A DNA stretch of 64,000 bases from an uncultured Planctomycetia bacterium (GTDB lineage: Bacteria > Planctomycetota > UBA1135 > GCA-002686595), in NCBI GenBank assembly GCA_938003765.1, contig CALKYE010000254.1, positions 29,197 through 93,196 of the forward strand. The letters run 5' to 3'. Made by a program: the position numbers and the translations under genes. Numbering within the stretch: the stretch's first letter is position 1; each line of letters opens with the position of its first letter. Of the stretch, positions 43,041 to 57,667 are shown in pieces. The notes under the pieces were generated by a model. It was not told the origin of the DNA. It did not search any database and saw nothing but the letters and a program-made list of their open reading frames with translations.

Positions 43041-44870
43041 ATGGCATTCGAGCGGATCTTGGTGGCGGCAATCGCGGCGTGGACTCTGTCGGCGTGCGGT
43101 GGTGGGGGCGGAGGCGGAGGAGGCAGCGCACCCGCTGCGCCTGCGAACCTCGCCGCCAACATCAACGGCGCGGTGATCGAACTCACCTGGGACGGCTCGG
43201 TCGGCGCCCAGAGCTACCGCATCTACTACGACCTCGAACCCGGCGTCTCGCGCGCGGCGTTCGCGTTGGTGACGGAGGTCGCCCACGACAACCAGTCCGC
43301 CGTGCAGGGCGTCGACCTGACGACGGGCCCCTCGTTCCGCGGCTTCTTCGCCATCACGGCGGTGGGCGGCGGCGGCGACGAGAGCGCGCTCACGGGTGAG
43401 GTGGCGGCCGACACGGGTCTGAGCCTCGCGGCCGACACGCTGTACTCGCATCAGTGGCACCTGCACAACGTCGGCCAAGGCGGCGGCACCCCCGGCGAGG
43501 ACGTGCGCATCGAGCAGGCCTGGGCCGCAGGCGTCGACGGAACCGACGTGCGCATCGCGGTGGTCGACGACGGCCTCGAGATCGGGCACGAGGACCTGTT
43601 CTTCAACTGCCCGCCAGGCGAGTCGCACAACTACACCAACGGCTCGAAGGACCCGACCGGCGGCGCGCACGGAACGTCGTGCGCGGGCGTCGCGGCGGCT
43701 GTCGGCGGCAACGATCTGGGGGTCGTAGGCGCCGCGCCCGAGGCCTTCCTCGTGGGCTACAACCTGCTGCAGAACTTCACCAGCTCGAACGAAGCGAACT
43801 CGATGACGCGAGACGCTGCGAAGAACTGGATCAGCAGCAACTCGTGGGGCGCGCCGGACGGGCTGGGCGTCCCGCAGCCGTCGAGCTCGAACTGGCGCAC
43901 GGCGGTCGAGACGGGCCTCGCGAACGGCCGCAACGGTCTGGGGCTGGTGTACCTCTGGGCGGCCGGCAACGGCGCGACCACGGGCGGCGCCGGACCGGGC
44001 GACAACTCCAACCTCGACGGCCGCGCGAACTTCTACGGCGTGATCGCGGTGGGCGCGGTGGGGGACGACGGCGTGAAGGCGGACTACTCCGAGAACGGCG
44101 CGAACCTGCTCGTGTGCGCGCCGTCGATGGGTCGCGCCAACCACGGCATCAGCACGGTCGATCGCTCCGACGGCGCCGGCTACAACGACGGCGCGCAGGC
44201 GGGCGACTTCCCCGACGCCAACTACACCAACACGTTCAACGGCACGTCGTCCGCGACGCCGCTCGTGGCGGGCGTTGCGGCCTTGATGCTCGAGGCGAAC
44301 CCCGCGCTGACTTGGCGCGACGCGCGGCTGGTGCTGGCGCAGAGCACGCGCATCAACCACCCCGGCGACGTCGGTTGGTTCGTGAACGGCGCGGGCCACT
44401 TGTTCAACCACAAGTACGGCTTCGGCGTCGTCGACGCGCAGGCGGCGGTGACGTTGGCCCAGGGCTGGACCAACGTCGGGCCGATGCTCACGCACACCAG
44501 CTCGACGGCTGCGGTGAACACGCCCATCCCCGACGCCGATCCGATCACCGGCGTCTCGGACACGATCTCGATCGCCGGCTCGGGCATCAACTTCATCGAG
44601 CACGTCGAGATCCTGTTCGACGCGGACGACCACACTTACGTCGGAGACCTGCTGATCTTCCTCGAGTCGCCCACGGGCTCGATCAGTCTGCTCTCGGAGC
44701 CTCACAACATCTCGGGCGGCAACGTGCCCTACGACGGCTGGGTGTTCGGCAGCGTGCAGCACATGGACGAGCCCGCCGACGGCGATTGGACTCTCACCGT
44801 GCGCGACACGCTCCCCGGCGACACCGGAACCTTCAAGTCGTGGCGCCTGCGCTTCCGCGGCCGTTCCTGA
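43041..44870 (+). CDS. Kexin/furin-like S8 serine protease lipoprotein with a P (Homo-B) domain
   Basis: Lipobox LSAC followed by poly-Gly. Catalytic Asp VVDDG, His HGTSCAG, Ser NGTSSATP. C-terminal P-domain (HTYVGDLLIFLESPTG...DGDWTLTVRD...GTFKSWRLRF). Confidence 0.85.
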   Translation: MAFERILVAAIAAWTLSACGGGGGGGGGSAPAAPANLAANINGAVIELTWDGSVGAQSYRIYYDLEPGVSRAAFALVTEVAHDNQSAVQGVDLTTGPSFRGFFAITAVGGGGDESALTGEVAADTGLSLAADTLYSHQWHLHNVGQGGGTPGEDVRIEQAWAAGVDGTDVRIAVVDDGLEIGHEDLFFNCPPGESHNYTNGSKDPTGGAHGTSCAGVAAAVGGNDLGVVGAAPEAFLVGYNLLQNFTSSNEANSMTRDAAKNWISSNSWGAPDGLGVPQPSSSNWRTAVETGLANGRNGLGLVYLWAAGNGATTGGAGPGDNSNLDGRANFYGVIAVGAVGDDGVKADYSENGANLLVCAPSMGRANHGISTVDRSDGAGYNDGAQAGDFPDANYTNTFNGTSSATPLVAGVAALMLEANPALTWRDARLVLAQSTRINHPGDVGWFVNGAGHLFNHKYGFGVVDAQAAVTLAQGWTNVGPMLTHTSSTAAVNTPIPDADPITGVSDTISIAGSGINFIEHVEILFDADDHTYVGDLLIFLESPTGSISLLSEPHNISGGNVPYDGWVFGSVQHMDEPADGDWTLTVRDTLPGDTGTFKSWRLRFRGRS

Positions 44871-44914
44871 TCCGCTCCGCACACGTCTTCGACGCCGCCA
44901 ACGAAAGAACCAAC

Positions 44915-45631
44915 ATGAAGCTCTCCGTCCTCACCTTGTCGCTCGCGCTGCTGGCCGCTTGCGCCGCCGACGATGCGCCGCAAACGGTGTCCGCCGACTC
45001 GAGCGCGACCCCTTCGACGAACTCCAGCGCGCCCGCGACGGGCGGCCGCACCGTTCAGGCCCAGGCTCAGGAGGCCACCACCTTGGGTGACAAGTCCCGG
45101 CGCGCCCCCAACGACCTGACGCGCGCGCTCACGTACTTCGACGGCGAGTCGGAGCGCACCGTGTGGATCTCGAACGAACTCGTCGCCGAGATCGGACCCA
45201 CCGAAGAAGGGCGCGCGCGAGTGCTGCAGTTCGACAGCACGGCCGAGCAAGCGCTCCAACCGCAGGCCGGCGTGCGACTGTGGCGGCTGCGCGCGTTGCA
45301 GAGCGCCGACGAAGCCTCGCGCACGCTCACTCGCGATGAGTTGCGCTTCTCGCCCGTCGTGCACGAGACCGCATCGAGCGCTTCGCCGCGCGGAGCGTTG
45401 CCGGGCGGAGCAGTCGCGACCTTCCCGGCCGACTGGGACCGCGCGCGCATCGACGCGTGGCTCGCCAAGCACGGCACGAGCATCGTCGAGCCTGCGGTGC
45501 TCGAAGCGAACATGTTCCTCGTCGCGTCCGCGCCCGGGCTGGCGTCGATCGAGCTCGCCACTCGTCTCCACGCCACCGGCGAGATCGTCTCCTGCACGCC
45601 GAACTTCTGGCGCGAGGTCGTCACGCGCTGA
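44915..45631 (+). CDS. Lipoprotein with a protease-prodomain-like C-terminal segment
   Basis: ATG 44915. Lipobox LLAAC. C-terminus IDAWLAKHGTSIVEPAVLEANMFLVASAPGLASIELATRLHATGEIVSCTPNFW resembles subtilase/I9-type prodomain endings (...V.yaePN.). Tentative. Confidence 0.55.
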   Translation: MKLSVLTLSLALLAACAADDAPQTVSADSSATPSTNSSAPATGGRTVQAQAQEATTLGDKSRRAPNDLTRALTYFDGESERTVWISNELVAEIGPTEEGRARVLQFDSTAEQALQPQAGVRLWRLRALQSADEASRTLTRDELRFSPVVHETASSASPRGALPGGAVATFPADWDRARIDAWLAKHGTSIVEPAVLEANMFLVASAPGLASIELATRLHATGEIVSCTPNFWREVVTR

Positions 45632-45696
45632 GCGTCGCGCCGCCGCGTTGCGGTTGAGAAAAAAGCCGGGCGGGGGTTGCCGACCGGAGCGCCTTC

Positions 45697-45731
45697 ATCT
45701 ACCACGGTAGTTACAAGCTACCAAGGTAGTT
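45697..45731. promoter_or_regulatory. Two tandem 16-bp dyad boxes (ATCTACCACGGTAGTT, AGCTACCAAGGTAGTT; centres 19 bp apart) immediately upstream of the TPR/ExbB/ExbD operon
   Basis: Read directly in a locally AT-richer stretch. Each box is CTACC-NN-GGTAG with a conserved 3' TT. It ends 26 nt before GTG 45758. Closely related to the box at 53492..53507. Confidence 0.6.
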
Positions 45732-45757
45732 GAACGCGTCCTCCGGAGGCCCTCGCC

Positions 45758-48700
45758 GTGCTCCCGCCCCGCTTCCAAACCCCGCTTTTCTCGCTGATTC
45801 TGGCCGTTTGTGGCGCGCTGCCCGCGCCGGGCCTCGCCGCGCAGGAGTCCGCCGACGAGCGCTACTCCTTCCTCGTCGGCCTGTGCGACGAGCGCGAATG
45901 GCGCCTGGCTGAACGCGAGGCGCGCGCCTTCCTCGAGGAGTTCCCGCGCCACGCCAAGGCCGACCTCGCGCGCTACCGACTCGCCACCGCGTTGTTCGAG
46001 CTGGGCGAGCGCCAGGCCGCGCGCGATGTGTACGCGCAACTCGAGCGGCGCGCGGAGTTCGAGTTCCGCGCCGAGGTCCTGTTCCGCCTGGGCCAGTGCG
46101 AGCTGAGCCTGGGTCGTGCTGCGCAAGCCATTGCGGCCTTCGAGCGCGTGCGCGCGCTCACGTCGCACTACCTCGCGCCGGCGGCCGAGTTCTTCCTCGC
46201 CGAAGCGCGCTTCGCCGCGGGCGAGTTCGCAGCGGCGGACGAGGGCTATGCGCGCGTGCTCGGCTCGTCCGCGGCGGGCGAGTACGAACGCGAAGCGCGC
46301 TACGGTCAGTGCTGGTGCGCGTTCCGCTTGTCGCGCAACGAGCAGGCGCTCGAGCGCATCGCGCAGTACCTCCAACGCTACGCGCAGCACGACAGCGCTC
46401 TGGAGTTGCGCTACGTCGAGGGCGAGATCCACCTGGCCGCGCAGCGCCCGCGCGAAGCGCTCGCGTCGTTCACGGCGGTGCGCTCGGGTCCGTTCGCGCA
46501 GCGCGCGCTGCGAGGCCGCGCCTTCGCGAGCTCCGCTCTCGGCGATCATGCTGCGGCGGCGCGCCTGTTCGGCGAGTTGCTCGAGCAGGCGCCGCAGGGT
46601 GAGTTCGCGGCCGAGGCCGGTCTGCAGCGCGGCATCCAACTGCTCCTCGCCGGGGATGCTCGCAGCGCCGCGCAGGCGTTGGACTCGCGCGCCAACGACC
46701 CCGAGTCGTGGTACTGGCTCGCGCGGGCCCGTTCGGAGAGCGGTGATCGTTCCGGCGCGCTCGATGCGCTCGAAGCGGCGTTGGCCGCCAAGCCGAAGGG
46801 TGAGCTGCTCGAGCGGCTCAGCGTGTTGCGCGGCGACGTGCTGAGCGCGCTCGGACGCACGGACGACGCGGCCAAGGCCTACTCGGCGGCTCGCAGCGAC
46901 TACGCGTTGCACGCGGCGGCGATCACGGCCTTCAACGCAGGCAAGCTCGACGACGCTGCGCGGACGGCGCGAGCGCTGCTGGAGCAGTTCCCGCAGAGCA
47001 CGTTCGCCGCGCCGATGCGCGTCGTGTGCGGCGAGGAAGCGCTCGCTCGCAAGGACTACGGCGCGGCCGCGCGCGAGTTCGACGCAGCGGCCGGCGACGA
47101 GAGCGCGCAAGACGCGACGCGGGCGCGAGCCTCGTTGCGTGGCGCGTGGTGCGCGCTGCTCGCGGGGGACGCGGAAGGGGCGCTCGAGCGTTCGCAGCGC
47201 ACCGCACGACAGTTCGCCGACGGCGTCGAGGCGCAGGAGGCGCGCTTCGTGCTCGCGCGCGCGGCGGACAAGCTCGGCCGCAGCGAACTCGCGATCGAGG
47301 CGTGGAGCGACTACGTGCGCGCGCAGCCGCGCGGTGAGCACGCCGCCGAAGCTCTCGCGGGGCTCGCGCGCGTCGACCGCGAACGTTCGGCGCAGTGGAG
47401 CGCGCGCCTCGCGGAGCAGTTCCCCGACTCGCAGGCGGTGGTGGGGGCGTTGCTCGAGCTCGCCGAGCGCGAGGCGAGCGAAGGGCGCGTCGCGCGCGCG
47501 CTCGAGCTGTACCGCGACGTGCTCCAGCGTTGGCCTGAGCATCCGCGGGCGGGCGAGGCGCGCTACGCACTCGCATGGCGCCTCTTCGAAGCCGGCGAGT
47601 TCAACGCGGCCGCCGACGAGTTGGAGCTCCTCGCGCAGGTCGACGGACTCGACCCCGCCGTCGCGAGTTCGGCCGCAGAGCTCGCCGTGTGGGCCTCCAG
47701 TCGCGCCGGCGATCGCGACGGCGCCGTGGCCGCCTACCAGCGCTACCGTCGACTCGGCGCCGAGCCGCGCAAGCTGCTCGGTGCGGCCCGACTGGCTGGC
47801 GCGGCTCTCGCCGACGCCGGTCGACCGCAGGAGGCTCGAGCGCTGTTCGACGAGTTGCTCGGCCGAGCGCGCGGCGATCGCGCCGTGCAGGCGGAAGTGC
47901 TGCTCGAGAGCGCGTGGATCGCGCTCGACGCCAAGGACGTCGACGAAGCCGAAGCAGCGCTGCGCACGGCGCTCAAGTTCGGCCCCGCGCCCGCCGCGCG
48001 ACCGGCGCTCGCTCAAGCGCTGTTCTTCGCGGGCGAGTTGCGCTTCGACGCGGGCGAGTTCGATCAGGCGCGCGCCTTGTACGAGCTCGCGCTCCCTGGG
48101 GCCGCCGCGGACGTCGCTGCGCAAGCGCTCTACAAGCTCGGCTTCGCGCACCTTCGCACGGAACGGCTCGACGACGCGGCGCTCGCGTTTGCGCGCGTCG
48201 CGAGCGAGCACCCCGAGCACGAGCTGGCCGGCGAGACGCGCTACCTCAGCGCGAACTGCCGCTTCCGCCAGGGCCGCTTCGAGGAGTGCGCGCAACTGCT
48301 TTCGAGCTTCGTGCGCGAGTCTCCGCGCCACGCTTGCGCGCCCAAGGCTCTGCTCGAGCTGGGCGTGGCCTGCGGCGAGCTCGGGCGCTGGAGCGAGTGC
48401 CAAGCCGCGTTGAGCGAGCTCGCGCGCCGCAACGCGAAGGACATCGACGTCGCGCACGCGGACCTGTGGCGTGCTCGCGCCGCTCGCGAGCGCGGCGACG
48501 TGCGCGGAGCGCGCGCGAGCCTCGAACGAGTGCTCGCCGCCGACAAGGGACTGCACGCCGCGCGCGCGCGGATCGAGCTGGGTCGCCTCGACTCCGACGC
48601 GGGCGAACACGAGGACGCGCTAGCGCAGTTCCTCAAGGTCGCGCTGCTCTACGAGGGCGGCGACGTCGTTCCACAGGCGTTGTTCCTCGCCGCCGGCTCG

Positions 48701-48823
48701 CTCGAGGCCCTCGAGCGCTTCGACAAGGCCCGCGCGCGCTACGCCGAGGTCGTCGAGAAGCACTCGGGTTCGCCGTACGCCGCGCGCGCTCGCGAGCGAC
48801 TCGAAGCGCTCGCAGGCAAGTAG
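45758..48823 (+). CDS. Giant secreted TPR-repeat protein (CpoB/YbgF-like repeats)
   Basis: GTG 45758 with GGAGG 8 nt upstream. Signal peptide. About 1000 aa of TPR-like helical hairpins (AxxxYxLAxxxFxxGxxxxA pattern). Confidence 0.8.
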   Translation: MLPPRFQTPLFSLILAVCGALPAPGLAAQESADERYSFLVGLCDEREWRLAEREARAFLEEFPRHAKADLARYRLATALFELGERQAARDVYAQLERRAEFEFRAEVLFRLGQCELSLGRAAQAIAAFERVRALTSHYLAPAAEFFLAEARFAAGEFAAADEGYARVLGSSAAGEYEREARYGQCWCAFRLSRNEQALERIAQYLQRYAQHDSALELRYVEGEIHLAAQRPREALASFTAVRSGPFAQRALRGRAFASSALGDHAAAARLFGELLEQAPQGEFAAEAGLQRGIQLLLAGDARSAAQALDSRANDPESWYWLARARSESGDRSGALDALEAALAAKPKGELLERLSVLRGDVLSALGRTDDAAKAYSAARSDYALHAAAITAFNAGKLDDAARTARALLEQFPQSTFAAPMRVVCGEEALARKDYGAAAREFDAAAGDESAQDATRARASLRGAWCALLAGDAEGALERSQRTARQFADGVEAQEARFVLARAADKLGRSELAIEAWSDYVRAQPRGEHAAEALAGLARVDRERSAQWSARLAEQFPDSQAVVGALLELAEREASEGRVARALELYRDVLQRWPEHPRAGEARYALAWRLFEAGEFNAAADELELLAQVDGLDPAVASSAAELAVWASSRAGDRDGAVAAYQRYRRLGAEPRKLLGAARLAGAALADAGRPQEARALFDELLGRARGDRAVQAEVLLESAWIALDAKDVDEAEAALRTALKFGPAPAARPALAQALFFAGELRFDAGEFDQARALYELALPGAAADVAAQALYKLGFAHLRTERLDDAALAFARVASEHPEHELAGETRYLSANCRFRQGRFEECAQLLSSFVRESPRHACAPKALLELGVACGELGRWSECQAALSELARRNAKDIDVAHADLWRARAARERGDVRGARASLERVLAADKGLHAARARIELGRLDSDAGEHEDALAQFLKVALLYEGGDVVPQALFLAAGSLEALERFDKARARYAEVVEKHSGSPYAARARERLEALAGK

Positions 48824-48926
48824 CCATTCCATCGCAACGCGCGGCGCGCGCCTGCGCCGTGCGAAGTCCACTCACTCCTGTCCGTCTCCAGCACGAGGCC
48901 GTACTGGCCGCCTCGCCGAGGTTCGC

Positions 48927-49658
48927 ATGTTGTTCGCACCGCAAGACACGCCGCCGCGTCCGATCGCTCAACTCGACAGCGTCTTCGAAATGGTCGTCGC
49001 CGGTGGTCCGGTGATGATTCCGCTAGCGCTGTGCTCGCTCGTCGCGCTCACCTGCGCGTTCGAGCGCGCTCTGCGCCTGCGCGCGCGCTCGCTCGGGATC
49101 GCCGAGCTCGAACGCGAACTTTTGCCCGCGCTCGCCTCGGGCGGCGCGACGGCCGGGCTCGCGCTGCTCGAGCGCCACTCGACTCCCGCGGCGCGCGTGC
49201 TGCGCGCGGGTCTGAGCCGCTGGGACGCGCCGTACCTCGAGCGCGAGAAGGAGCTCGAAGAGGCGGGCCTGCGCGAGGTGCGCGGTCTGTCCGCCAACCT
49301 CAAGCCGCTGGTCTACGTCGCGATGCTCGCGCCGCTGCTGGGCTTCCTCGGCACCGTCTACGGAATGATCGTGGCCTTCTCGACGGTGGCGTTGAGCGAA
49401 GGCCTCGGCCGCCCCGAACTCCTCGCGGCCGGCATCAGCCAGGCGCTGGTGACGACGGCCGCGGGTCTGACGATCGCGGTGCCGACGCAGGTCCTCTACT
49501 ACTGGCTGAAGTCGCGTGTCGAGCGCTTCGCACGCAACGTCGAGGAGCTGTGGGAACGCTCCGCGCGCACGCTCCGCTCCGGAGTCACGCCGCCGCCCGC
49601 GACACCGAGCGCTCCTCCCGTCGCAGAGCCTCTCTCGAGCGCCGCGCAACCTGCCTAG
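48927..49658 (+). CDS. MotA/TolQ/ExbB-family proton channel protein
   Basis: Three TM helices. LGFLGTVYGMIVAF and ISQALVTTAAGLTIAVP are family hallmarks. Confidence 0.9.
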   Translation: MLFAPQDTPPRPIAQLDSVFEMVVAGGPVMIPLALCSLVALTCAFERALRLRARSLGIAELERELLPALASGGATAGLALLERHSTPAARVLRAGLSRWDAPYLEREKELEEAGLREVRGLSANLKPLVYVAMLAPLLGFLGTVYGMIVAFSTVALSEGLGRPELLAAGISQALVTTAAGLTIAVPTQVLYYWLKSRVERFARNVEELWERSARTLRSGVTPPPATPSAPPVAEPLSSAAQPA

Positions 49659-49667
49659 GAGCCTCCC

Positions 49668-50081
49668 ATGCACTTGCGCGACGAAGAGCCGCTCGACGAG
49701 CAGGCCCTCAACCTGACTTCGATGACCGACCTGGTCTTCCTGCTGCTCGTGTTCTTCCTGTGCGCGACGACGTTCCTCGATCCCGAGCGCGCGTTGCGGC
49801 TGGAGCTGCCCGCTGCGCAGAGCGCCGAACGTCGCGATGTCCCGCTCGAGGAGCTCGTGATCAACGTCTCCCGCGACGGAGTCCTCACCCTCGCCGGGCG
49901 TTCGATCGATCGCCCCGCGCTCGAGCGCGAGCTGCGGGCCGCGTTCGCGCGCGATCCGCAGACGCCCGTGACGATCCGCGGCGATCGCCTCGCGACGCAC
50001 GAGAACATCGTCTCCGTGATGGACGTCTGCGGGCAGGCGGGGCTCTCGAACCTGGCTGTCGGAACGCTCGAAGGCTCGTAG
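49668..50081 (+). CDS. ExbD/TolR-family protein
   Basis: AGGAG SD. LNLTSMTDLVFLLLVFFL TM helix with the conserved Asp, then a periplasmic domain (VTIRGDRLATHENIVSVMDVC). Confidence 0.9.
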   Translation: MHLRDEEPLDEQALNLTSMTDLVFLLLVFFLCATTFLDPERALRLELPAAQSAERRDVPLEELVINVSRDGVLTLAGRSIDRPALERELRAAFARDPQTPVTIRGDRLATHENIVSVMDVCGQAGLSNLAVGTLEGS

Positions 50082-50091
50082 GAGATCCGCC

Positions 50092-53000
50092 GTGCTCACC
50101 GCCGCCTCGCGCAAGAACGTCGTGATCGCCATGGCGCTCGCGGGCGCCGCCTTGCTCGCCTTCAACCGCTGGGTGCTGCCGGCGTTGTTCGACCTGCGGC
50201 CGATCCGCGACGGCGCCGGCGTGTACGCGCGCGACGACGCACGCCTGCGGTTGGCGGTGTGGGAGTCGCCGCGCCCGATGGCCGGCGAGCTCGACACACA
50301 GGCTCGCGAGTCGCACGCGCGCACGTCGCCCGACGGCCGCTGGATCGTCTACAGCGTCGGCGAACTCGGCGGCGACTGTGAGCTCTACCTCGCGGAGCTC
50401 GTCGGCGGCGTCCCCGGCGCTCCGCGCGCGCTCGCCGAGTTGAACAGCGCGGCGGACGAGCTCTCGCCCGCGTGGAGCGACGACGCGCTGTACTTCTGCT
50501 CCGATCGCGCGAACGGCGCGGGCGGGTTCGATCTCTACCGCGCGGCGTGGGACGGCGTTTCGTTCGGCGCCGTCGAAGCTCTGGCGGAACTCAACGGCCC
50601 CGCGAACGAGTGCGATCCCGCGCCCGCCGCCGGATTCCTGGTGTTCGCGAGCGATCGCGACGGCGCGGGCTTCGACTTGTACTCGGCGCCGACGGGCGGC
50701 CGCGCGGAGAAGCTCGAACGGCTCTCGAGCGCCGCGCACGAGCGCGATCCGTTCGTCACCCCCGACGGACGCGCGTTGTACTTCGCGAGCAACCGCGCGC
50801 GCGGCGGCGAGGACTTCGACCTCCTGCGCAGCTTCTTCGACCTCGGCGAGTGGCTCGCGCCCGAGCGCATCGCCGGACTGGATTCACGCGCCTGCGAACG
50901 CGCGCCCTCGACCTCGCACGACGGCCTCACGCTGCACTTTGCGCGCGCGGGCGACCCCTCGGCCGAGCTGCTCGTGTCGCGATCGATCGAGCTCTTCCGC
51001 GGCGCCGCGCCGGCGCGGGGATGGGCTGACCTGTGGCTGATGGCAGCGCTCCTGCTGCTGGCTTTGGTCGCCGCGCTGTCCAAGCGCTGGGAGGAGCTCG
51101 ACCTTCTCTACAAGTGCGCGCTGGCGAGCGTCATCGCGCACTTGCTCGTGCTCTTGCTGTTGCGCGAGCTGCACCCCGACGCGGAGGCCTGGGACAAAGG
51201 ACCTCCGCCGCAGCAGCGGATCCGCGTGCGGCTCGAAGCGCCGCGCGAGCGCGGCATCGTCGAACGTGCGGGCCGGCTCGACAGCGAGCGCGTGGCGCGC
51301 AACGAGGCCGAGCAGCCGCAGCGCGCAGAGTTCCAAGCGCCCGCGGATGAGCAGCTCTCGAGCGCTGCTGCGCCGCTCGCGATGGAGTCTGCGCCGATCG
51401 CATCGGCGCCGCAGCCGCAGGCGGCCGAGCTGGAACGCTCCGAGAGCGCGGACGCGGCGCGAACGCCGCCGGTCGAGTTGCCGAGCGAGGCGCGCGCGCG
51501 ACGTGCAGCGTTGGCCGCTCGCGAAGAGGCGCCGCAGCCCTCTGCATCGCGCGCAGAACGCGGTGAGGTTGCGACACCGGGGCCCTCGCTCGCGTTGGTC
51601 GCGCCTCGCGCTGAGGATGACAGCGCTCCAGCCGCATCGGCGCTCACGCGTCAGGCGCCGGAACGAACCGACGAGCGTCTGCCCGCCGCGCAATCTGGCG
51701 CTCCGCTCGAGCGCTCGATCGACGCCGGTGCGCTCGCGGCCGGCCCGCAGGTCGAGTTGCCCGCCGAATCGCCGGCGCGCAGCTCCGCGCTCGAGCCTGA
51801 CGCTCCGCTGTCCGCGCCGCGCTCGTTCGAACGCGAGCGTGCGCCCGCAGAGAGCGCGCGTGGCGCGTCCGCACCCGAGCGAGTCGAGGTCGCGCGCGCC
51901 GCTGATGCGTCGGAGACGAGCGGCCCCGCGAATCACGCGCCGTTGGAGCGCGCTGCGGCGCCGCAGCTTGCTCCCGAGCGCGCATCCGCGTTCGCCTCGG
52001 CCGCTGGCGAGCCGCTCTCGCGCGACGCAGCCGATGCGGCGGGGCCCGAGCTCGCGCTTCCTCGCGAGTCGCGCCAGCTCAGCTCGCTCGCCGCGTCGCC
52101 CGCGAACGAAGCTCCTGCGCCGCGCGCGCTCGCGCCGCAGCGCCGGGCGTCTCCCGACGACTCCGGCCCGAGTGCGCCGATCGCCGCCGCTGCGCCGACG
52201 GACGAGCCTCTCGAGAGCTCCGCGCCCGCGCTGCAGCCTCTCGAAGCCGCGCCGCGCGCAGCAGCGCTCGACACACCACCGGCGCCTCGACCGCTCGACG
52301 ACACGCCGTACCGCTCGCGCTTCGGAACCGAGAAGGAGATCGCGCTGCGCGAGCACGGCGGCACCGAGGAGACCGAGCGCGCGGTGGCGAACGGTCTGCG
52401 CTACCTCGCCAGTCGCCAGCGCCGCGACGGCTCGTGGGGCTCGCCCAACGATGCGCATGCGAAGTACCGCGACGTGCGCGTGGGCAAGAGCGGATTGGCG
52501 CTGCTCGCGTTCCTCGGGGCCGGGCACACGCCGGGTTCGAGCGGCGAGTACGCCCGAGTGAGCGACGCGGCCGTGCAGTGGCTGCTGGCTGTTCAGGATG
52601 CCGACACCGGGCACTTCGGCGACTGCGAGGCCTACGGCCACGGCATCGCGACCTACGCGCTGGCCGAGTGCTACGCGCTGACGCGCGACGCGCGACTCGG
52701 CGACGCGGTGCGGCGCGCGGTCGAGCGCATCCTCTCGCAGCAGATCACGCGCGGCGACGCGCGTTCGATCGGCGGCTGGAGCTACTTCTATCCCGATGGC
52801 GCGATCTTCGATCGCTGGCCGCGCGCTTCGATCGCAGCCTGGCAAGTGATGGCGCTCGAGTCCGCGCGACTGGGCGGCATCGAGGTTCCCGACGAAGCGT
52901 TCGAGCGCGCGCGCGAGTTCCTGCGCGGCTCGTGGGACGCCGAACTCGGCCGCTTCCGCTACAGCCACGATCCGCAGCGCCTGCGCTCGGGCTACGCGAC

Positions 53001-53412
53001 CTTGCCGGGCTCGACACCGGCGGCGCTGTTCGCGCTGTCGCTGCTCGGCGAGGATCTCGCGGCCACGCGCTGGCGCGAGGCGGTCGACTTCGTCAGCGGC
53101 TGCGCGCCGAACGGCTACCGCTGGGAAGGCGAGCAGGCCTTCGTCGAGCGCGCCGGGGGCAACTTGTACTTCTGGTACTACGGCAGCCTTGCGCTGCTGC
53201 GACGCGGCGGCGATGCGTGGGAGCGCTGGAACGTCGCGCTGAAGGAGTCGCTCCCGCCCGCGCAGGCGGCGGACGGCTCGTGGGCGCCGCTCGACGTGTA
53301 CAGCCAATACGCGGGCGACGACGAGCGCGACCGCGTGTACTCGACGGCGATGTGCGTGCTCTCGCTCGAGGTGTACTACCGCTACTTCACGCCGCTGCTC
53401 CAGGTGCGCTGA
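50092..53412 (+). CDS. Membrane protein fusing PD40/TolB-like repeats, a P/A/E-rich extended linker and a C-terminal prenyltransferase/terpene-cyclase-like alpha-alpha toroid
   Basis: GTG 50092 with a TAGGAG SD. N-terminal TM. PD40 units (SPDGRWIVYS, LYFCSDRANGAGGFDLYRA, LVFASDRDGAGFDLYSA, LYFASNRARGGEDFDLLRS). Two TM helices near aa 320-360. A ~400-aa linker. Toroid motifs (GLRYLASRQRRDGSWG, LLAVQDADTGHFG, SIGGWSYF, AADGSWAP). Confidence 0.8.
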   Translation: MLTAASRKNVVIAMALAGAALLAFNRWVLPALFDLRPIRDGAGVYARDDARLRLAVWESPRPMAGELDTQARESHARTSPDGRWIVYSVGELGGDCELYLAELVGGVPGAPRALAELNSAADELSPAWSDDALYFCSDRANGAGGFDLYRAAWDGVSFGAVEALAELNGPANECDPAPAAGFLVFASDRDGAGFDLYSAPTGGRAEKLERLSSAAHERDPFVTPDGRALYFASNRARGGEDFDLLRSFFDLGEWLAPERIAGLDSRACERAPSTSHDGLTLHFARAGDPSAELLVSRSIELFRGAAPARGWADLWLMAALLLLALVAALSKRWEELDLLYKCALASVIAHLLVLLLLRELHPDAEAWDKGPPPQQRIRVRLEAPRERGIVERAGRLDSERVARNEAEQPQRAEFQAPADEQLSSAAAPLAMESAPIASAPQPQAAELERSESADAARTPPVELPSEARARRAALAAREEAPQPSASRAERGEVATPGPSLALVAPRAEDDSAPAASALTRQAPERTDERLPAAQSGAPLERSIDAGALAAGPQVELPAESPARSSALEPDAPLSAPRSFERERAPAESARGASAPERVEVARAADASETSGPANHAPLERAAAPQLAPERASAFASAAGEPLSRDAADAAGPELALPRESRQLSSLAASPANEAPAPRALAPQRRASPDDSGPSAPIAAAAPTDEPLESSAPALQPLEAAPRAAALDTPPAPRPLDDTPYRSRFGTEKEIALREHGGTEETERAVANGLRYLASRQRRDGSWGSPNDAHAKYRDVRVGKSGLALLAFLGAGHTPGSSGEYARVSDAAVQWLLAVQDADTGHFGDCEAYGHGIATYALAECYALTRDARLGDAVRRAVERILSQQITRGDARSIGGWSYFYPDGAIFDRWPRASIAAWQVMALESARLGGIEVPDEAFERAREFLRGSWDAELGRFRYSHDPQRLRSGYATLPGSTPAALFALSLLGEDLAATRWREAVDFVSGCAPNGYRWEGEQAFVERAGGNLYFWYYGSLALLRRGGDAWERWNVALKESLPPAQAADGSWAPLDVYSQYAGDDERDRVYSTAMCVLSLEVYYRYFTPLLQVR

Positions 53413-53491
53413 TGGGACGGCGGAGCTCGCGCGTACACAAGGCCAACACGCCGACGCGGATTGCGTACGGGGCCGCCCCTGTTCAGCCGAT

Positions 53492-53507
53492 AACTACCGT
53501 AGTAGTT
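53492..53507. promoter_or_regulatory. 16-bp dyad box AACTACCGTAGTAGTT, 59 nt upstream of the blaI-like gene (candidate autoregulatory operator)
   Basis: Arms AACTAC/GTAGTT are perfect inverted repeats. 11 of 14 core positions are identical to the boxes at 45697..45731. Sits in the only AT-richer patch of the intergenic region. Confidence 0.6.
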
Positions 53508-53566
53508 TTGAGGCGCAGCGGGTCGCGAGGCGCGATCCGTCTCAGCGCGAAGGAAGCGAACGAGCG

Positions 53567-53974
53567 ATGAAGGACAAGGACCGGATCCACCATCTTGGCG
53601 AGCTGCAGCACGCGATCATGCGCGTGCTCTGGGCCGAGGGCGAAGCGAGCGTGGCGCGCGTGCAGGAGGCGTTGCCCGAAGAGCACCGCCGCGCGCTCAC
53701 CACGATCGCGACCATGCTGACCAAGATGGAGCGCAAGGGCGTGGTCACGCACCGCTCCGAGGGGCGCTTCTTCATCTACGCGCCCGCGGTGAAGGAGACC
53801 GACGTGCGCCGCTCGATGGTCGAGGACCTGACCGAGCGTCTGTTCGACGGCGACGTCGCGGCGCTGGTGTCGCACCTGCTCACCGAGCAGGAGATCGAGC
53901 GCGACGAGCTCGCGCGCCTGCAGAAGCTCATCGAAACGCGTCGCAAGGGGGACAAGGGCCATGGGCGCAAGTGA
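53567..53974 (+). CDS. BlaI/MecI/CopY-family winged-helix transcriptional repressor
   Basis: LGELQHAIMRVLW...TIATMLTKMERKGVV...GRFFIYAP is a typical penicillinase-repressor fold pattern. Overlaps the downstream M56 gene by 14 nt. Confidence 0.9.
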   Translation: MKDKDRIHHLGELQHAIMRVLWAEGEASVARVQEALPEEHRRALTTIATMLTKMERKGVVTHRSEGRFFIYAPAVKETDVRRSMVEDLTERLFDGDVAALVSHLLTEQEIERDELARLQKLIETRRKGDKGHGRK

Positions 53975-55898
53975 GTTCGCGCTCAGCGCGCTCGCCTTCG
54001 TACTGACCTACGCCATCCACAGCACGCTGCTGCTCGGCGTGGCGTGTCTGCTCGCCCCGCGAATCGTGCGCTCGCTGGCGTTGCGCGAGAAGCTGTGGAA
54101 GACGGCCATGTTCGGCGGTCTGTTGACCTCGCTCGTGCAAGTCGGCGCGAGCATGGAGACGCCGCTGTTCCACTGGACGTTGGAGTCGCACTCCGAGGCG
54201 AGTTCGCTCGCCGCCGACAACCAGCTCGAGCTCGAACGCGCGCCCCAGCTGCAGCTCGAACTGGCGCTCGCTCCCGCGACGACCGACGCTTCCGACGGCG
54301 CGAGCGAGCCCGCGGCCGCGGACGGAGCTCGAACGGAACTCTGCGTCGAGGACGGCGCGTCGACGAACGTCTCCTCGCCCGCTCAGGTCCGGGCGAAGGT
54401 CGCGAGTGCTGCACCCGCGCCGCGCGTTTCGCCGATCGTGTCCGCCGCGCCGACGGAGCGCGACCTGGCCGCGAACCCCGTTCGCGAGAGCGACTCGGCA
54501 CACGAGAACGAGCTCGCAGGCGCCGCCGCGCGCGAAGCCGACGCGCCGAGCGCTTCGATCGAGCGCGAAGACTCTGAGAGCTGGTCGGCCGCGCTGGTGC
54601 GCGGATGGCGAACGTGGACGGCGCGAGGCCTCGCGCTGTGGGCCGTGTTCGCCTGCGCCGTGCTGGTCGTGTTCGCCTCGATGTGCCTGCGCCTCGTGCG
54701 TTGCATGCGCGGTCGCACGGAGCTCGAGAGCGGTGAGCTGCGCGACGTGCTCGACCGACTGGTCCGGCAGGCGTACCCCGCGGGGCGGCGCGTGCGCTTG
54801 TACGTCGCGCCCGAGTTGCGCGCTCCGGTGAGTCTGGGCTGGCTGCGACCCGCGATCTGCGTTCCGCCGCGCGCGTTGGTCGAGCTGAGCGCCGATGAGC
54901 AGGAGAGCATGCTCGCGCACGAGCTCGCGCACCTGGTGCGCCGCGATCCGCTGTGGCTCTCGGCCGCGTGGCTCGTCGAACGCGTGTTCTTCTTCCAGCC
55001 GCTGCACCGCGTCGCGCGCGCCGAGCTGCACGACCTCGCCGAGCTGGCGTGCGACGAGTGGGCCGCGCGCCGCACCGGCGATCGGCTCGCGCTCGCGAGT
55101 TGCCTCGCGCGCATCGCCGAGTGGATCATCGCCGCGCCGCGCGCCTTGCCTGCGACCTCGATGGCCGAGCACCACGGCCGCTGTCGATTGACGCAGCGCA
55201 TCGAACGGCTCCTCGACGACGAAGCCGGGCTCGCGCGCGACGAGCGCACGCGCCGTTGGTTGGCGCCGGCGATGGCGACCGGCCTGGGAGCGCTGGTCTT
55301 CGTGGCGCCGGGTGTGTCGGCGCCCGCGACGACGACGGATGCGAGCGTGTTCGATCACGCGCAGGTCGACTCGCCTGAGTTCGACGCGAGCGCGGAAGAG
55401 CGCGCGCCGGCGCCTTTGCGGACGACGACGGACGCTTCGTGGGTTCCGGCCGCGCCGAGCAACGCAGGTCGGCCGGCGGCTGCGTCGCCCTCGGAGCTCG
55501 ACTCCGCCGCGCCGCGCGAGTTCGCCGCGCAGCTCGATCTCGCCGATTCGGCTCTCGACGCGCCGACTCCGCCTGCCGCGCCGACGCCGACTCTGGCGAC
55601 GCTGCCGGCGCCCACGGTCGACGAGCGCGCGTCACTGAACGCGCAGCTCGATCAGTTGAACGCGAGCCTGTCCGCGCTGCGCGCCGAGTTGGGCCCGCTG
55701 CGCGACGAGGTCGGCGATCTCGGCCGCGACTCGCAGGTCGCGCGCGCCCTGTCGGCCATCGCGCGACGTATCGACAACCTGGAGCGCCGGTCTCAGTCGC
55801 TCCAGCAAGTGATCCAAGTGCTCGAAACGCTCGAGTCGAAGCCAGCCCATCCTTCGAGCACTTCCGTTGGTTTCCAAGGTTCCAGGAGTCTTCCGTGA
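53961..55898 (+). CDS. BlaR1-like M56 family membrane metalloprotease/signal transducer lacking a PBP-type sensor domain
   Basis: N-terminal TM helices. HELAHLVRRDPLW (HExxH). The C-terminal ~230 aa are low-complexity plus coiled coil (LNAQLDQLNASLSALRAELGPLRDEV). No SxxK motif seen. Confidence 0.85.
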   Translation: MGASEFALSALAFVLTYAIHSTLLLGVACLLAPRIVRSLALREKLWKTAMFGGLLTSLVQVGASMETPLFHWTLESHSEASSLAADNQLELERAPQLQLELALAPATTDASDGASEPAAADGARTELCVEDGASTNVSSPAQVRAKVASAAPAPRVSPIVSAAPTERDLAANPVRESDSAHENELAGAAAREADAPSASIEREDSESWSAALVRGWRTWTARGLALWAVFACAVLVVFASMCLRLVRCMRGRTELESGELRDVLDRLVRQAYPAGRRVRLYVAPELRAPVSLGWLRPAICVPPRALVELSADEQESMLAHELAHLVRRDPLWLSAAWLVERVFFFQPLHRVARAELHDLAELACDEWAARRTGDRLALASCLARIAEWIIAAPRALPATSMAEHHGRCRLTQRIERLLDDEAGLARDERTRRWLAPAMATGLGALVFVAPGVSAPATTTDASVFDHAQVDSPEFDASAEERAPAPLRTTTDASWVPAAPSNAGRPAAASPSELDSAAPREFAAQLDLADSALDAPTPPAAPTPTLATLPAPTVDERASLNAQLDQLNASLSALRAELGPLRDEVGDLGRDSQVARALSAIARRIDNLERRSQSLQQVIQVLETLESKPAHPSSTSVGFQGSRSLP

Positions 55899-57667
55899 TG
55901 AAACTGGTCTTGTCTCTCTCCGCGCTCGGACTGATCGGCAGCGGCGCCGCTGCTGTCTCGACGCAGAGTTCTTGTGCGAGCCCCAAGCCGTGCGCCACGA
56001 CGCTCGCGGCGGACTCGAGCTGCTCGCAGGCCACGCCGCTCGCGATCAGCGTCGCCGCCGTTCCTGCGCAAGGCGACAAGGTCGCTGCGCGCGCCGCTGA
56101 ACTCGAGGCCCTCGCTGGCGAGCAGGGTCTCGCCGACTCCGCGCAGGACGAGCCCGCGGGGATCTCGACCAAGGCGCCCCAGCAGCGTCAACCGCGCGTG
56201 TTCCGCTACGAAGGCGGCACGCTCACGCCCTCCGCTCCGAATAGCGTCGCGACGCCGCGGGCCCCGGCCGCACCGCGCGCTCCGGCGGCGCCTCACGCTC
56301 CGGCGGCGCCTCACGCGGCCGCGCAACCGTGTGCGCCGTGCCCTGCCGCGCCGGCGTGTCCGCCGTGCCCGCCGTGCGAACCTTCGAAGGCGACGCCCGC
56401 TGCGCCGCACTCGAAGAGCAAGTCGAACGGTTCGGTGGCGAGCACGCAGCAGTGGCGCGCTCAGGTCGAGCGACAGATCGCGACTGCGCGCGACGCCCAA
56501 GAGCACGCCCGCCAACGCATGCGCGAAGCGCTGGATCAGCAGCGCGAGGCGCAGCAGCGCGCGCGCGAAGAGGTCGAGCGTGCGCGCGAGCGCAGTCAGA
56601 CGCAGACCAAGCGTGCGCTCGAGCAAGCTGAGCGCGCCGCCATCATCGTGCGCGACAAGGCCGAGCGCGGGCACGCTGCGGAGTCCAAGCGCCGCGCCTC
56701 TGGCGCCAGCGAACGCGAACTCGAACTCGAGCGCCGTGTGCAGGAGCTGGAGGCGCGTCTGATGGAGATGGAGCGCTCTCGCGGCGGGCAGGCCGGGCCT
56801 GGTGCGCACACACAGTCCGGGCCGCACGGCGTGAGCGGTGGTGTGCGCAGCCGCGTGCACGCGCCCGCCGCCCCGTCCGCCCCGCACGGCGCCAGCGGCG
56901 GTGCGCGCATCCGCGCGCGCGTCGTGGGGCCGAACGGCAGCGGCGGAGTGTTCCTCGAGACCTCGCCCGAGTCCGACGACCGCGAGTGCAATCCCAGTCG
57001 CGTGCGCGTGCTGCGCATGCCGGCCGGGAAGGGCACGGTCGTCGTGCCCGGTGATCTCGGCGGGCTGGTCGATCTCGACGGGCTCGACATCGCGGTGATC
57101 GCGCCCGACGGCAGCCGCGTCGACTGGGGCGAGAGCATCGCGAAGTGGGCCGAGGAGTTTGCTCACGAGCAGGCGCAGTGGGCGGAAGAGTTCGCGCGCG
57201 CGCACGCCGGCGAGTGGAGCGAGCTCGCCTTGGAGCGCTTGGACGACGTCGAGGACGCCTGGGACTCGGCCTGGGAGCGCTACGAGGATCAGCTCGAGGA
57301 GGCTCAGGAACTCGAGGAAGAACTGCGCGAGGAAGCCGAGGAGGCAGCCGAGGAAGCTGCGGAAGAGGCGGCCGAGGCCGAAGAGCTCCAACGCGAAGCC
57401 GCTGAGCGGACGCGCGAGTCGCGGCTCGCGCCGCACGTGGTCCGTGGCGAGCAGAGCCAGGCGCTCGCGCCGCTGGCCGCGCTGAGCCTGCTCGGGAAGC
57501 AGGATCCGCTGGGGCTCTCGCGCCTCGCCAACTACCCGGGCGAGTCGAGCACGGAGCAGCTCCGCAGCGCCGTGAACGAGATGCAGAGCGAGGTCGATGG
57601 CCTGCGCGCGGCGCTGCGCGAGTTGCGCGAGCAGCTCGAGCAACGCAAGCGCACCGCGACCTTCTGA
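55898..57667 (+). CDS. Secreted coiled-coil protein with a Cys/Pro-rich cluster (third gene of the BlaI/BlaR1-like operon)
   Basis: ATG 55898 overlaps the upstream TGA by 1 nt; AGGAG is 10 nt upstream. Signal peptide MKLVLSLSALGLIGSGAAA. QPCAPCPAAPACPPCPPCEPS. Long charged helices. Acidic EEAAEEAAEEAAEAEE tract. Confidence 0.75.
   Translation: MKLVLSLSALGLIGSGAAAVSTQSSCASPKPCATTLAADSSCSQATPLAISVAAVPAQGDKVAARAAELEALAGEQGLADSAQDEPAGISTKAPQQRQPRVFRYEGGTLTPSAPNSVATPRAPAAPRAPAAPHAPAAPHAAAQPCAPCPAAPACPPCPPCEPSKATPAAPHSKSKSNGSVASTQQWRAQVERQIATARDAQEHARQRMREALDQQREAQQRAREEVERARERSQTQTKRALEQAERAAIIVRDKAERGHAAESKRRASGASERELELERRVQELEARLMEMERSRGGQAGPGAHTQSGPHGVSGGVRSRVHAPAAPSAPHGASGGARIRARVVGPNGSGGVFLETSPESDDRECNPSRVRVLRMPAGKGTVVVPGDLGGLVDLDGLDIAVIAPDGSRVDWGESIAKWAEEFAHEQAQWAEEFARAHAGEWSELALERLDDVEDAWDSAWERYEDQLEEAQELEEELREEAEEAAEEAAEEAAEAEELQREAAERTRESRLAPHVVRGEQSQALAPLAALSLLGKQDPLGLSRLANYPGESSTEQLRSAVNEMQSEVDGLRAALRELREQLEQRKRTATF

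Follow-up and report, generated by a model that had tools for sequence, protein, structure and literature searches.

The closest published relatives of the locus described here are the vWA-headed transducers, for which the concept of an alternative-headed transducer was published in 2025 (Williams-Jones et al. 2025, Mol Biol Evol, PMC12204202). They were described from PVC bacteria, Planctomycetes among them, and their function is stated as unknown; in these proteins an SHLS-type transmembrane helix (TMH) is joined through a disordered, motor-box-containing linker to a globular C-terminal head other than TonB, and their genes follow a TPR gene and tolQ/tolR-like genes (PMC12204202). The same paper reviews cryo-EM evidence for the binding of SHLS motifs to the motor, and the D-box was defined in PMC10907165, lying in E. 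coli TonB 29 residues past the Ser of the helix (S16 to I45).

The Planctomycetota operon analysed here has this gene arrangement and this helix, linker and non-TonB head in common with the vWA-headed system. It differs in the fold of the head, an (α/α)6 toroid instead of vWA, in having one tolR/exbD gene instead of a heterologous pair, in a linker of ~375 aa instead of ~100 aa, and in placing two additional TM segments and a TolB-like propeller ahead of the docking helix; toroid, prenyl, squalene and PD40 are not mentioned in PMC12204202. We consider it likely that the cluster is a Planctomycetota-specific, PMF-driven system of the Ton/Tol class for trans-periplasmic force transduction.

As in the Ton system (TonB-ExbB-ExbD), a motor of the ExbB/ExbD family with the conserved Thr and Asp is accompanied by a transducer that has a TMH with SxxxH, a D-box-like strand at TonB spacing and a long non-helical linker. 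Unlike TonB, this transducer has no TonB_C domain and carries its putative docking helix as the third TM instead of a single N-terminal one, and the operon neighbourhood is without a TonB-dependent transporter. Of the Tol-Pal system (TolQ-TolR-TolA-TolB-Pal-CpoB), the operon unites equivalents of TolQ and TolR with a TolA-like TMH and linker, a propeller of TolB fold and CpoB-like TPR modules, whereas it has neither a Pal/OmpA-like protein nor TolA domain III, and its propeller, which lacks the TolB N-terminal domain, is anchored in the membrane as part of the transducer. Tol-like folds are likewise fused in the TPR-propeller-OmpA lipoproteins of the PorE/CHU_0125 type of Bacteroidota, but these are outer-membrane lipoproteins that end in a peptidoglycan-binding OmpA domain and have no motor-docking TMH; although the CHU_0125 and PorE propellers are the best NCBIfam matches of our PD40 region, its scores fall well short of the respective cut-offs (61 against 620 and 46 against 600).

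Gene content and conservation

Within the 64-kb window, the whole stretch of DNA analysed, the four genes lie on the forward strand and encode a TPR protein of 1021 aa (45758-48823), an ExbB homologue of 243 aa (48927-49658), an ExbD homologue of 137 aa (49668-50081) and a transducer fusion of 1106 aa (50092-53412). The ORF coordinates leave gaps of 103, 9 and 10 nt in that order, the ribosome-binding sites GGAGG, GAGG, AGGAG and AGGAG (genes 1 to 4) stand 6-13 nt 5' of the start codons, and all four ORFs have the codon-position GC pattern typical of real genes, in a genome of 70% GC. The original prediction of four co-directional genes with short gaps and good Shine-Dalgarno sites thus stands, and its domain calls for the four products agree with Pfam and NCBIfam profiles and with AF2 models. 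It had also noted that no OmpA/Pal or TonB C-terminal domain was visible, and we detected none in the cluster or in ~35 other ORFs of the window.

The first product matches many TPR families, with TIGR02795 (YbgF/CpoB) recurring in seven stretches, so that it consists of ~7 CpoB/YbgF-like TPR modules, and hydropathy gives it an N-terminal type-I signal peptide, as expected of the secreted protein with CpoB/YbgF-like repeats that had been read from the sequence. The signal-peptide N-termini of its homologues lack a conserved lipobox Cys; in contrast to CpoB of Tol-Pal, the protein is about four times as long and is not a lipoprotein. The second and third products had been taken for a MotA/TolQ/ExbB channel and an ExbD/TolR subunit, and both assignments were confirmed by profiles (PF01618 MotA_ExbB, 3e-24; PF02472 ExbD, 2e-24) and by the retained functional residues: the pore residues Thr143 and Thr177 align to T145 and T178 of E. 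coli TolQ, and TM residue Asp21 aligns to the TM Asp D25 of ExbD. Unlike their Ton counterparts, both proteins score far below the NCBIfam TolQ, TolR, ExbB and ExbD equivalog cut-offs and therefore fall outside both named subfamilies.

Essentially all related Planctomycetota loci with enough upstream DNA, Pla163 (40% identity) and others at ~30% identity among them, preserve the collinear order TPR-ExbB-ExbD-PD40-toroid, so the arrangement is not due to chance and the four genes are conserved together, the point on which a synteny survey had been proposed. De novo clustering of neighbours recovered the fusion in 54 loci, the TPR gene in the same position in 52, ExbD in 49 and ExbB in 45, and no further widely shared neighbour gene. 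A minimal form, ExbB-ExbD followed by a protein with two TM segments (SxxxH), linker and toroid, was also found, which ties the toroid protein specifically to the motor. ExbB, ExbD and the transducer make up the core of the system, to which particular clades have added the TPR gene and the PD40 fusion.

The fusion protein

Hydropathy gives the 1106-aa protein three TM segments, TM1 (residues 10-32), TM2 (311-332) and TM3 (338-359). Between the first two lies a PD40 β-propeller (residues ~55-302; 50254-50997; PF07676, 2e-16), predicted to be periplasmic, whose AF2 model has a pLDDT of 86, with blocks above 90. Its top 16 PDB matches in Foldseek are all TolB (E ~3e-12), so that the TolB-type repeats proposed earlier are TolB-like by fold as well.

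TM3 (51103-51168) carries the motor-docking motif of TonB/TolA type, Ser346-x3-His350 (codons 51127-51129 and 51139-51141). In an alignment of 62 homologues spanning 27-87% identity, these two residues are the sole invariant columns of the TM region, and SxxxH occurs in 94 of 103 homologues. Thirty-one residues past Ser346 follows a D-box-like strand, I377-R-V-R-L381 (Φ-ζ-Φ-ζ-Φ; 51220-51234), flanked by proline on both sides, and the pattern lies at +30/31 from the Ser in most homologues, which agrees with the D-box of E. coli TonB both in position and in sequence pattern. TM3 gives way to a low-complexity linker of ~375 aa equivalent to domain II (51169-52293), rich in P, A, E, R and S (25% A, 14% P, 11% R, 11% E, 10% S) and without a Pfam match; its length ranges from 93 to 864 aa among homologues of the PD40 form, with a median of 426 aa. 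The likeness of this linker to TonB/TolA, at first a guess from composition, is now backed by the invariant SxxxH and the D-box-like strand. Residues 735-1106 (52294-53409), with QxxDGxW repeats, make up the C-terminal toroid, an (α/α)6 barrel in the AF2 model (pLDDT 93) and in Foldseek comparisons, as the proposed prenyltransferase-like alpha-alpha toroid implied; the family comprises ~6,200 clusters at 50% identity. Because of the docking signature in TM3, with its invariant Ser and His, and the D-box-like strand at TonB spacing, we infer that this protein is the force transducer of the system, with the toroid in place of the TonB/TolA C-terminal domain.

Putative operators and the adjoining regulatory genes

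The cluster also carries BlaI-type operators and adjoins a blaI-blaR1-like pair, neither of which was part of the original prediction. Two tandem operator-like palindromes of BlaI/MecI/CopY type, CTACCACGGTAGTT and CTACCAAGGTAGTT, stand 19 bp apart at 45699-45729, 28-60 nt 5' of the TPR start codon, and a third, CTACCGTAGTAGTT (53494-53507), lies 62 nt 5' of blaI. The palindrome reads ACTAC-N4-GTAGTT, with the same half-site spacing as the BlaI-family operator TACANNTGTA (PMC7253601), and the window has three occurrences of CTAC-N4-GTAG where 0.06 would be expected. Related loci totalling 1.37 Mb contain 17 strict matches, every one of them in front of the TPR gene or blaI; L002, L008, L010 and L067 share the site 5' of blaI. 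On the forward strand follow a BlaI/MecI-family winged-helix repressor of 135 aa that is predicted to regulate the operon (53567-53974; PF03965, 6e-32), and a BlaR1-like M56 membrane metalloprotease of 645 aa with an HELAH motif (53961-55898; PF05569, 1.5e-21). A profile search detected no penicillin-binding sensor domain in the latter; its C-terminal tail is P/A-rich and coiled-coil, the last 245 aa giving only weak matches of coiled-coil type. The pair adjoins the cluster in L002, L004, L008, L010, L032, L075 and L085. Since the operator arrangement recurs in relatives, inducible control of the operon is predicted, although such regulation may be clade-limited, as the strict operator precedes the TPR gene in just 11 of 41 loci (17 when one mismatch is allowed).

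Proposed mechanism and alternative explanations

We propose that ExbB and ExbD, in a 5:2 stoichiometry assumed by homology, form an ion-driven motor in the inner membrane, on which TM3 would dock through its Ser346/His350 face, while the IRVRL strand just outside the membrane would be captured by the periplasmic dimer of ExbD. The P/A/E-rich linker could then cross the periplasm and let the toroid, instead of TonB_C or TolA domain III, engage a target in the cell wall or outer membrane, the motor pulling or releasing it. The TolB-like propeller, a clade feature, would be held between TM1 and TM2 at the periplasmic face of the inner membrane, and the secreted TPR scaffold of ~1000 aa is presumably co-expressed with motor and transducer. 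The neighbouring BlaI-family repressor is predicted to act at the two tandem operators until an envelope signal activates the BlaR1-like M56 protease and repression is relieved. The output is most likely a Tol-Pal-like role in envelope integrity or in coupling of the outer membrane to the cell wall, which we favour because the system is accompanied by modules resembling CpoB and TolB but by no outer-membrane transporter gene.

The architecture itself, with its SxxxH helix, D-box and long non-helical linker, would also suit a Ton-like energiser in which the toroid contacts an outer-membrane uptake device other than a TonB-dependent transporter and PMF powers the import of polysaccharides or other macromolecules into the periplasm, which is enlarged in planctomycetes. 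The length of the linkers fits this, as do glycan-acting (α/α)6 enzymes (GH76, AGE epimerases and MmpH) among the structural neighbours of the toroid and the 'selfish' polysaccharide uptake of planctomycetes, the mechanism of which is stated as unknown (PMC6474216). We nevertheless regard import as unlikely: the related loci have no conserved outer-membrane transporter or CAZyme gene beside the cluster, the CpoB-like and TolB-like modules are parts of Tol type and not of Ton type, and control by a BlaI-type repressor is atypical for nutrient-uptake regulons. In Myxococcus, large TPR proteins of the Agl-Glt machinery accompany TolQR-like motors, and a motor for surface motility or secretion resembling Agl-Glt or GldLM, moving envelope-spanning complexes on large TPR scaffolds, might be read into our cluster too. 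The PorW/SprE and Tgl models match the TPR protein and a gliding-type role was speculated for the vWA-headed relatives (PMC12204202), but these matches are weak and far below the cut-offs, neither the window nor the conserved neighbourhood contains Glt, Gld, T9SS or pilus genes, and the system is a self-contained module of three to four genes, which makes such a motor very improbable.

We give equally little credence to the toroid as a membrane-tethered periplasmic enzyme (a terpenoid cyclase, prenyl-binding protein or glycan hydrolase or epimerase), with ExbBD serving another partner. Homologues are named 'terpene cyclase/mutase family protein' in databases, and the nearest structures are indeed enzymes, among them single-domain class II terpene cyclases, yet at a TM of just ~0.6. 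The Pfam matches to SQHop_cyclase_C and Prenyltrans (residues 750-885) are weak, at 21.6 against a gathering score of 26.1, a PDB profile search with the toroid sequence returned only distant squalene-hopene cyclase matches, and that sequence has no DxDD motif. Moreover, an enzyme would explain neither the invariant SxxxH helix and the D-box-like strand nor the fact that the toroid gene strictly adjoins ExbBD in the minimal form as well, and the module encodes no alternative candidate transducer.

A force-transducing machine with a Tol-Pal-like output hence remains our preferred reading. The PMF-driven Tol/Ton-like envelope machine of rearranged and fused parts that had been proposed gains support, each of its elements having held up, and the operon seems to represent a hitherto undescribed variant among the machines by which energy reaches the outer envelope of bacteria.

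Results

Gene cluster and motor subunits

The window has a GC content of 70% and its genes, among them those for DUF1501, DUF1800, PSCyt-type cytochrome and 3-keto-disaccharide-hydrolase domain proteins, are typical of Planctomycetota. Four co-directional ORFs were located on the + strand, encoding the TPR protein (45758-48823), the ExbB-like protein (48927-49658), the ExbD-like protein (49668-50081) and the 1106-aa large protein (50092-53412). The ORFs are exactly as the original prediction had described the cluster, which was also right on the gaps of 103, 9 and 10 nt between the genes and on the presence of good SD sites: GGAGG, GAGG, AGGAG and AGGAG, in gene order, lie directly before the four starts. 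The codon-position GC of all four ORFs follows the pattern of real genes. Pfam and NCBIfam searches returned the protein classes that had been expected (TPR/CpoB-like, MotA/TolQ/ExbB, ExbD/TolR and PD40 with weak squalene-cyclase/prenyltransferase-type matches), and a domain scan of the cluster and of the other window ORFs scanned bore out the claim that OmpA/Pal and TonB_C domains are absent.

Scanning of positions 44800-54100 for sigma-70 promoters and intrinsic terminators gave nothing exceeding shuffle expectation, and Rfam and tRNA scans of the whole window gave no matches. The approximately 890 nt that separate the TPR gene from the S8/P-domain protease gene (44871-45757) hold no convincingly coding ORF; the candidate ORFs 45067-45705 (-) and 44729-45571 (-) have an atypical codon-position GC. 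About 20 kb upstream of the cluster and in an unrelated genomic context, the window encodes a second PD40-repeat protein (678 aa; 23726-25762, +), which carries a putative metal-binding motif of the MopE type. The four cluster proteins were also compared with PADLOC to exclude a Zorya-type MotAB defence system, with zero matches.

The ExbB-like protein matched PF01618 with 85.6 bits (gathering cut-off 22.9) and the ExbD-like protein matched PF02472 with 86.8 bits (gathering cut-off 25.4), both above threshold. Pore-lining threonines are kept, T143 and T177 of the ExbB-like protein aligning with T145 and T178 of TolQ, and D21 in the single TM helix of the ExbD-like protein aligns to the TM aspartate of ExbD. 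Both subunits scored below the NCBIfam equivalog cut-offs, the former for TolQ (67.7 vs. 221) and ExbB (46.5 vs. 206), the latter for TolR (50.6 vs. 127) and ExbD (35.3 vs. 216). Repeats of the TPR protein match the YbgF/CpoB model (TIGR02795) in 7 stretches; the score of 216.7 (cut-off 90.1) is reached only as the sum over these repeated stretches of a 1021-aa protein, and the score against PRK10803 CpoB is 51 (cut-off 383). CpoB/YbgF is a protein of about 260 aa with a coiled coil and one TPR domain. Since the N-termini of TPR homologues carry type-I signal peptides without a conserved lipobox cysteine, the TPR protein is probably soluble in the periplasm.

Architecture of the large protein

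Hydropathy analysis placed the TM segments of the large protein at residues ~10-28, 312-330 and 338-356. The AF2 model of residues 1-400 (pLDDT 86) comprises an N-terminal helix (residues 2-33), a β-propeller (~55-302) and the TM2 (311-332) and TM3 (338-359) helices, and its top 16 PDB matches are all TolB (E about 3e-12), with S9-peptidase propellers ranking behind. Against TIGR02800 (TolB) the PD40 propeller scored 27, the cut-off being 343; it is flanked by TM helices and has no TolB-type N-terminal α/β domain by it. Lysine and arginine residues at the N-terminus and between TM2 and TM3, in the loop SKRWEELDLLYK, suggest, by the positive-inside rule, that the N-terminus is cytoplasmic and that propeller, linker and toroid are periplasmic. 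The linker (residues 360-734) is of low complexity (25% A, 14% P, 11% R, 11% E and 10% S), and the TM/linker region matched neither TonB_N nor any other Pfam family at E ≤ 1. Exact-sequence look-ups of the large protein and of its homologue P0336 found neither on record.

TM3, with the sequence LYKCALASVIAHLLVLLLL, holds Ser346-x3-His350. Across the membrane region of an alignment of 62 sequences (27-87% identity), only the columns of S346 and H350 are invariant, and SxxxH lies inside a hydrophobic segment in 94 of 103 homologues. Compared with SHLS, the downstream leucine of the motif is kept and the final serine is absent. At +31 from Ser346 we found PPPQQR-IRVRL-EAP, an alternating hydrophobic/hydrophilic strand with proline on either side, and most homologues carry the Φ-ζ-Φ-ζ-Φ pattern at +30/31 from the serine. 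E. coli TonB has S16-x3-H20 and the D-box QPISVTMVTP from I45 (+29), the D-box being the strand that the periplasmic dimer of ExbD captures (PMC10907165). Cryo-EM shows TonB and TolA bound to their motors through the SHLS motifs (work summarised in PMC12204202). Given the SxxxH motif, the D-box-like strand and the retained ExbB threonines and ExbD aspartate, the large protein is best read as the putative force transducer of the adjacent ExbB/ExbD motor, with the toroid in place of TonB_C or TolA domain III. Four residues before the docking serine, Cys342 (51115-51117; motif [KR]-C-x-[LV]-x-S-x3-H) is kept in at least 90% of homologues; this cysteine has no counterpart in TonB and TolA.

Residues 735-1106 were modelled by AF2 as an (α/α)6 barrel with a pLDDT of 93, and we regard the toroid fold predicted for this region as certain. 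The closest solved structures are single-domain class II terpene cyclases, small squalene-hopene cyclases, GH76 mannanases and AGE-type epimerases, with Foldseek TM-scores of only about 0.6 and 12-20% identity. The toroid sequence has QxxDGxW-type repeats, lacks the DxDD motif and scored below the Pfam and TIGRFAM cut-offs (PF13243 21.6 vs. 26.1; TIGR01787 22.8 vs. 322.7). Because of the low TM-scores, the missing DxDD motif and the Pfam scores below gathering thresholds, membership of the toroid in any enzyme family is not supported. Near its C-terminal end (53350-53409) there is a nearly invariant LEVYYRY(F/L)xP, almost always ~15 residues or fewer from the C-terminus, which holds throughout the toroid family down to members with about 30% identity and may be an interaction motif; the last 8 toroid residues have low pLDDT.

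Conservation and variant architectures

Homologues of the large protein come almost all from Planctomycetota MAGs and, in addition, from strain Pla163, where the order TPR-ExbB-ExbD-transducer is kept (40% identity), as it is in three further divergent loci. Scanning of species-representative genomes gave at least 551 loci, and nearly all of the best 80 carry a Planctomycetota label. By tblastn, essentially every locus that extends far enough upstream has TPR, ExbB, ExbD, PD40 and toroid collinear on a single strand, and de novo clustering of flank ORFs recovered the transducer in 54 loci, TPR in 52, ExbD in 49 and ExbB in 45, and no further component common to many loci. Among other neighbours, checked by this clustering and for genes of S8 protease, RluA, MFS, GH63 and ECF sigma proteins, only blaI/blaR and one DsbH-like gene, the latter limited to a clade, proved to be shared. 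When 1.84 billion cluster representatives were searched with a profile, 6,189 clusters fell into the toroid family at E ≤ 1e-30, the top 150 being mostly proteins of 1,000-1,450 aa. The toroid-headed family has thousands of members and appears to be largely confined to Planctomycetota.

Distant members without the propeller have about 600-650 aa and consist of a two-TM hairpin with SxxxH, the D-box-like strand, a shorter linker and the toroid; the median linker measures 182 aa in this minimal form vs. 426 aa in the PD40 form. A few of them are auto-annotated by JGI as 'outer membrane biosynthesis protein TonB'. Propeller-less members directly follow ExbB-ExbD with no TPR gene (locus L088 and loci L083-L087), and because of this arrangement the core module is ExbB-ExbD-toroid transducer, to which the TPR gene and the fused propeller are additions in the clade of the window. 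In some lineages (e.g. proteins P0203, P0141, P0158 and P0183) a real PDZ domain follows the toroid. Three proteins of 1748-1869 aa (P0058, P0061, P0064) contain two propeller-toroid units, arranged as PD40-toroid-PD40, SxxxH helix, linker and second toroid, and thus the toroid can also sit N-terminal of the docking helix. Apparently split transducer genes in two loci (L006, 5623-9263; L007, 5489-9671), encoding PD40-TM-linker and a separate toroid, were first taken as Rosetta-stone evidence and then discarded: the tails of the upstream products are rich in Arg and look out of frame, the downstream products are without signal peptides, and the splits are probably assembly frameshifts in MAG contigs.

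BlaI/BlaR1-like neighbours and a putative operator

Directly downstream of the cluster lies a gene for a BlaI-family repressor (53567-53974; PF03965 at 6e-32), followed by that for a BlaR1-like M56 protease (53961-55898; PF05569 at 1.5e-21, with a HELAH motif). No penicillin-binding (transpeptidase-like) sensor domain was detected by Pfam in the whole BlaR1-like protein or in its C-terminal 245 aa, and its C-terminal part is P/A/T-rich and then coiled coil. The ATG of a further + strand ORF (55898-57667) overlaps the blaR stop codon (TGATG), and this ORF may be the third gene of the blaI-blaR unit. Its product is a secreted protein of 589 aa in which a signal peptide is combined with a P/A-rich stretch carrying Cys-Pro motifs and with long coiled-coil-like segments rich in Glu and Arg; the ORF has zero Pfam matches and an atypical codon-position GC.

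CTAC-N4-GTAG, a palindrome with the extended consensus ACTAC-N4-GTAGTT, is present exactly 3 times in the 64 kb, vs. 0.06 expected. Two tandem copies 19 bp apart lie 28-60 nt before the TPR start (45699-45729), and the third (53494-53507) precedes blaI by 62 nt. Related loci totalling 1.37 Mb contain 17 strict motifs, all just upstream of either the TPR gene (L005, L008 twice, L014, L017, L020, L024, L030 twice, L033, L037, L039 and L077) or blaI (L002, L008, L010 and L067), and the 300 nt preceding TPR are about 20-fold enriched for the motif when 1 mismatch is permitted. The blaI-blaR pair is located directly upstream of TPR in L002 and L004 and about 1.5 kb upstream in L010. The operator TACANNTGTA of the BlaI/MecI/CopY family (PMC7253601) has the half-site spacing TAC-N4-GTA, the same as the window palindrome, and the operator-like site in L002 includes TACATATGTA. 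From these sites we infer that the operon is part of the adjacent BlaI-type repressor's regulon and would be induced by BlaR1-type proteolysis. Since the strict motif precedes TPR in only 11 of the 41 loci examined, the BlaI link may be clade-limited.

Discussion

The large protein resembles TonB in its TM helix with an SxxxH docking motif and in the Pro-flanked Φ-ζ-Φ-ζ-Φ strand shortly after this helix. The TonB_C domain binds Ton boxes; at E ≤ 0.01 it (PF03544) is absent from the large protein, whose C-terminal domain is the (α/α)6 barrel. The difference from Tol-Pal lies in the toroid that stands instead of TolA domain III and in the propeller, since TolB is a soluble periplasmic protein with an N-terminal α/β domain and a six-bladed propeller, whereas the propeller here has a TolB-like fold and is TM-flanked. 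Pal is an OmpA-like peptidoglycan-binding outer-membrane lipoprotein, and no Pal/OmpA-family match was found in the cluster, in the other window ORFs scanned or among conserved neighbours. The toroid-headed system would work like Ton and Tol; it is a member of neither, because the tests for their C-terminal domains failed, no Pal was found in these ORFs and ExbB/ExbD remain below the equivalog cut-offs.

Its closest published relatives are the vWA-headed force transducers (Williams-Jones et al. 2025, PMC12204202), which combine a vWA head and a disordered linker with an SHLS-bearing TMH, are encoded downstream of TPR-tolQ-tolR-tolR in PVC bacteria and whose function was unknown to the authors (PMC12204202). 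The two systems share the SHLS-type TMH, the disordered linker and synteny with TPR and tolQ/tolR-like genes, but differ in head fold, linker length, one tolR-like gene vs. a pair, the extra TMs and the fused propeller. No vWA Pfam match was obtained for the large protein, and toroid, prenyl, squalene and PD40 are all unmentioned in PMC12204202. Full-text searches of open-access PMC/bioRxiv that combined ExbB, ExbD or TonB with a toroid, prenyltransferase or squalene-type domain gave no description of a toroid-headed transducer. We take the system to be a Ton/Tol-class force transducer with an alternative head, and the initial view of the cluster as a Tol/Ton-like proton-motive-force envelope machine is supported by the motor residues, SxxxH, the D-box-like strand and conserved synteny.

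In the mechanism that we propose, the repressor would hold the tandem operators until an envelope signal activates the M56 protease and the repressor is inactivated. The TPR protein would be exported and ExbB/ExbD, by homology, would assemble as an ion-driven motor of 5:2 stoichiometry. Judging by the motifs, TM3 would dock on ExbB via S346/H350 and the IRVRL strand would be clamped by the ExbD dimer. The linker, which we estimate to reach some 20 nm as a coil and at most about 115 nm when stretched out fully, would cross the periplasm. The toroid would bind a cell-wall or outer-membrane target, and the motor would exert force on it. The propeller at the inner-membrane surface and the TPR scaffold would probably organise or gate the toroid-target interaction.

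As for the output, we favour a Tol-like role in envelope maintenance over Ton-like import, because CpoB-like and TolB-like parts co-occur with the system and a transporter gene does not; this preference is the weakest part of our argument. A wider reading, which we consider rather unlikely, makes the toroid-headed transducer a Planctomycetota-wide replacement of TonB/TolA: the missing energy coupler either for Pal-less outer-membrane/cell-wall coupling in FtsZ-independent division or for 'selfish' import of macromolecules into the planctomycetal periplasm, its (α/α)6 head binding a glycan or isoprenoid and not a protein β-strand, and switched on under envelope stress by BlaI/BlaR1-type proteolysis.

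Ton and Tol are the two classic routes by which inner-membrane energy reaches the outer envelope in diderm bacteria, and the envelope, division and macromolecule uptake of Planctomycetota are poorly understood. The vWA head, as a third type, was described as recently as 2025 (PMC12204202), and the motor-docking module of SxxxH helix and D-box is also joined to an (α/α)6 toroid. The system offers handles for testing in S346, H350 and the D-box residues, in a defined operator-repressor pair and in a well-folded head domain. If the BlaI link is true, a BlaR1-type switch would govern an envelope motor and not a β-lactamase.
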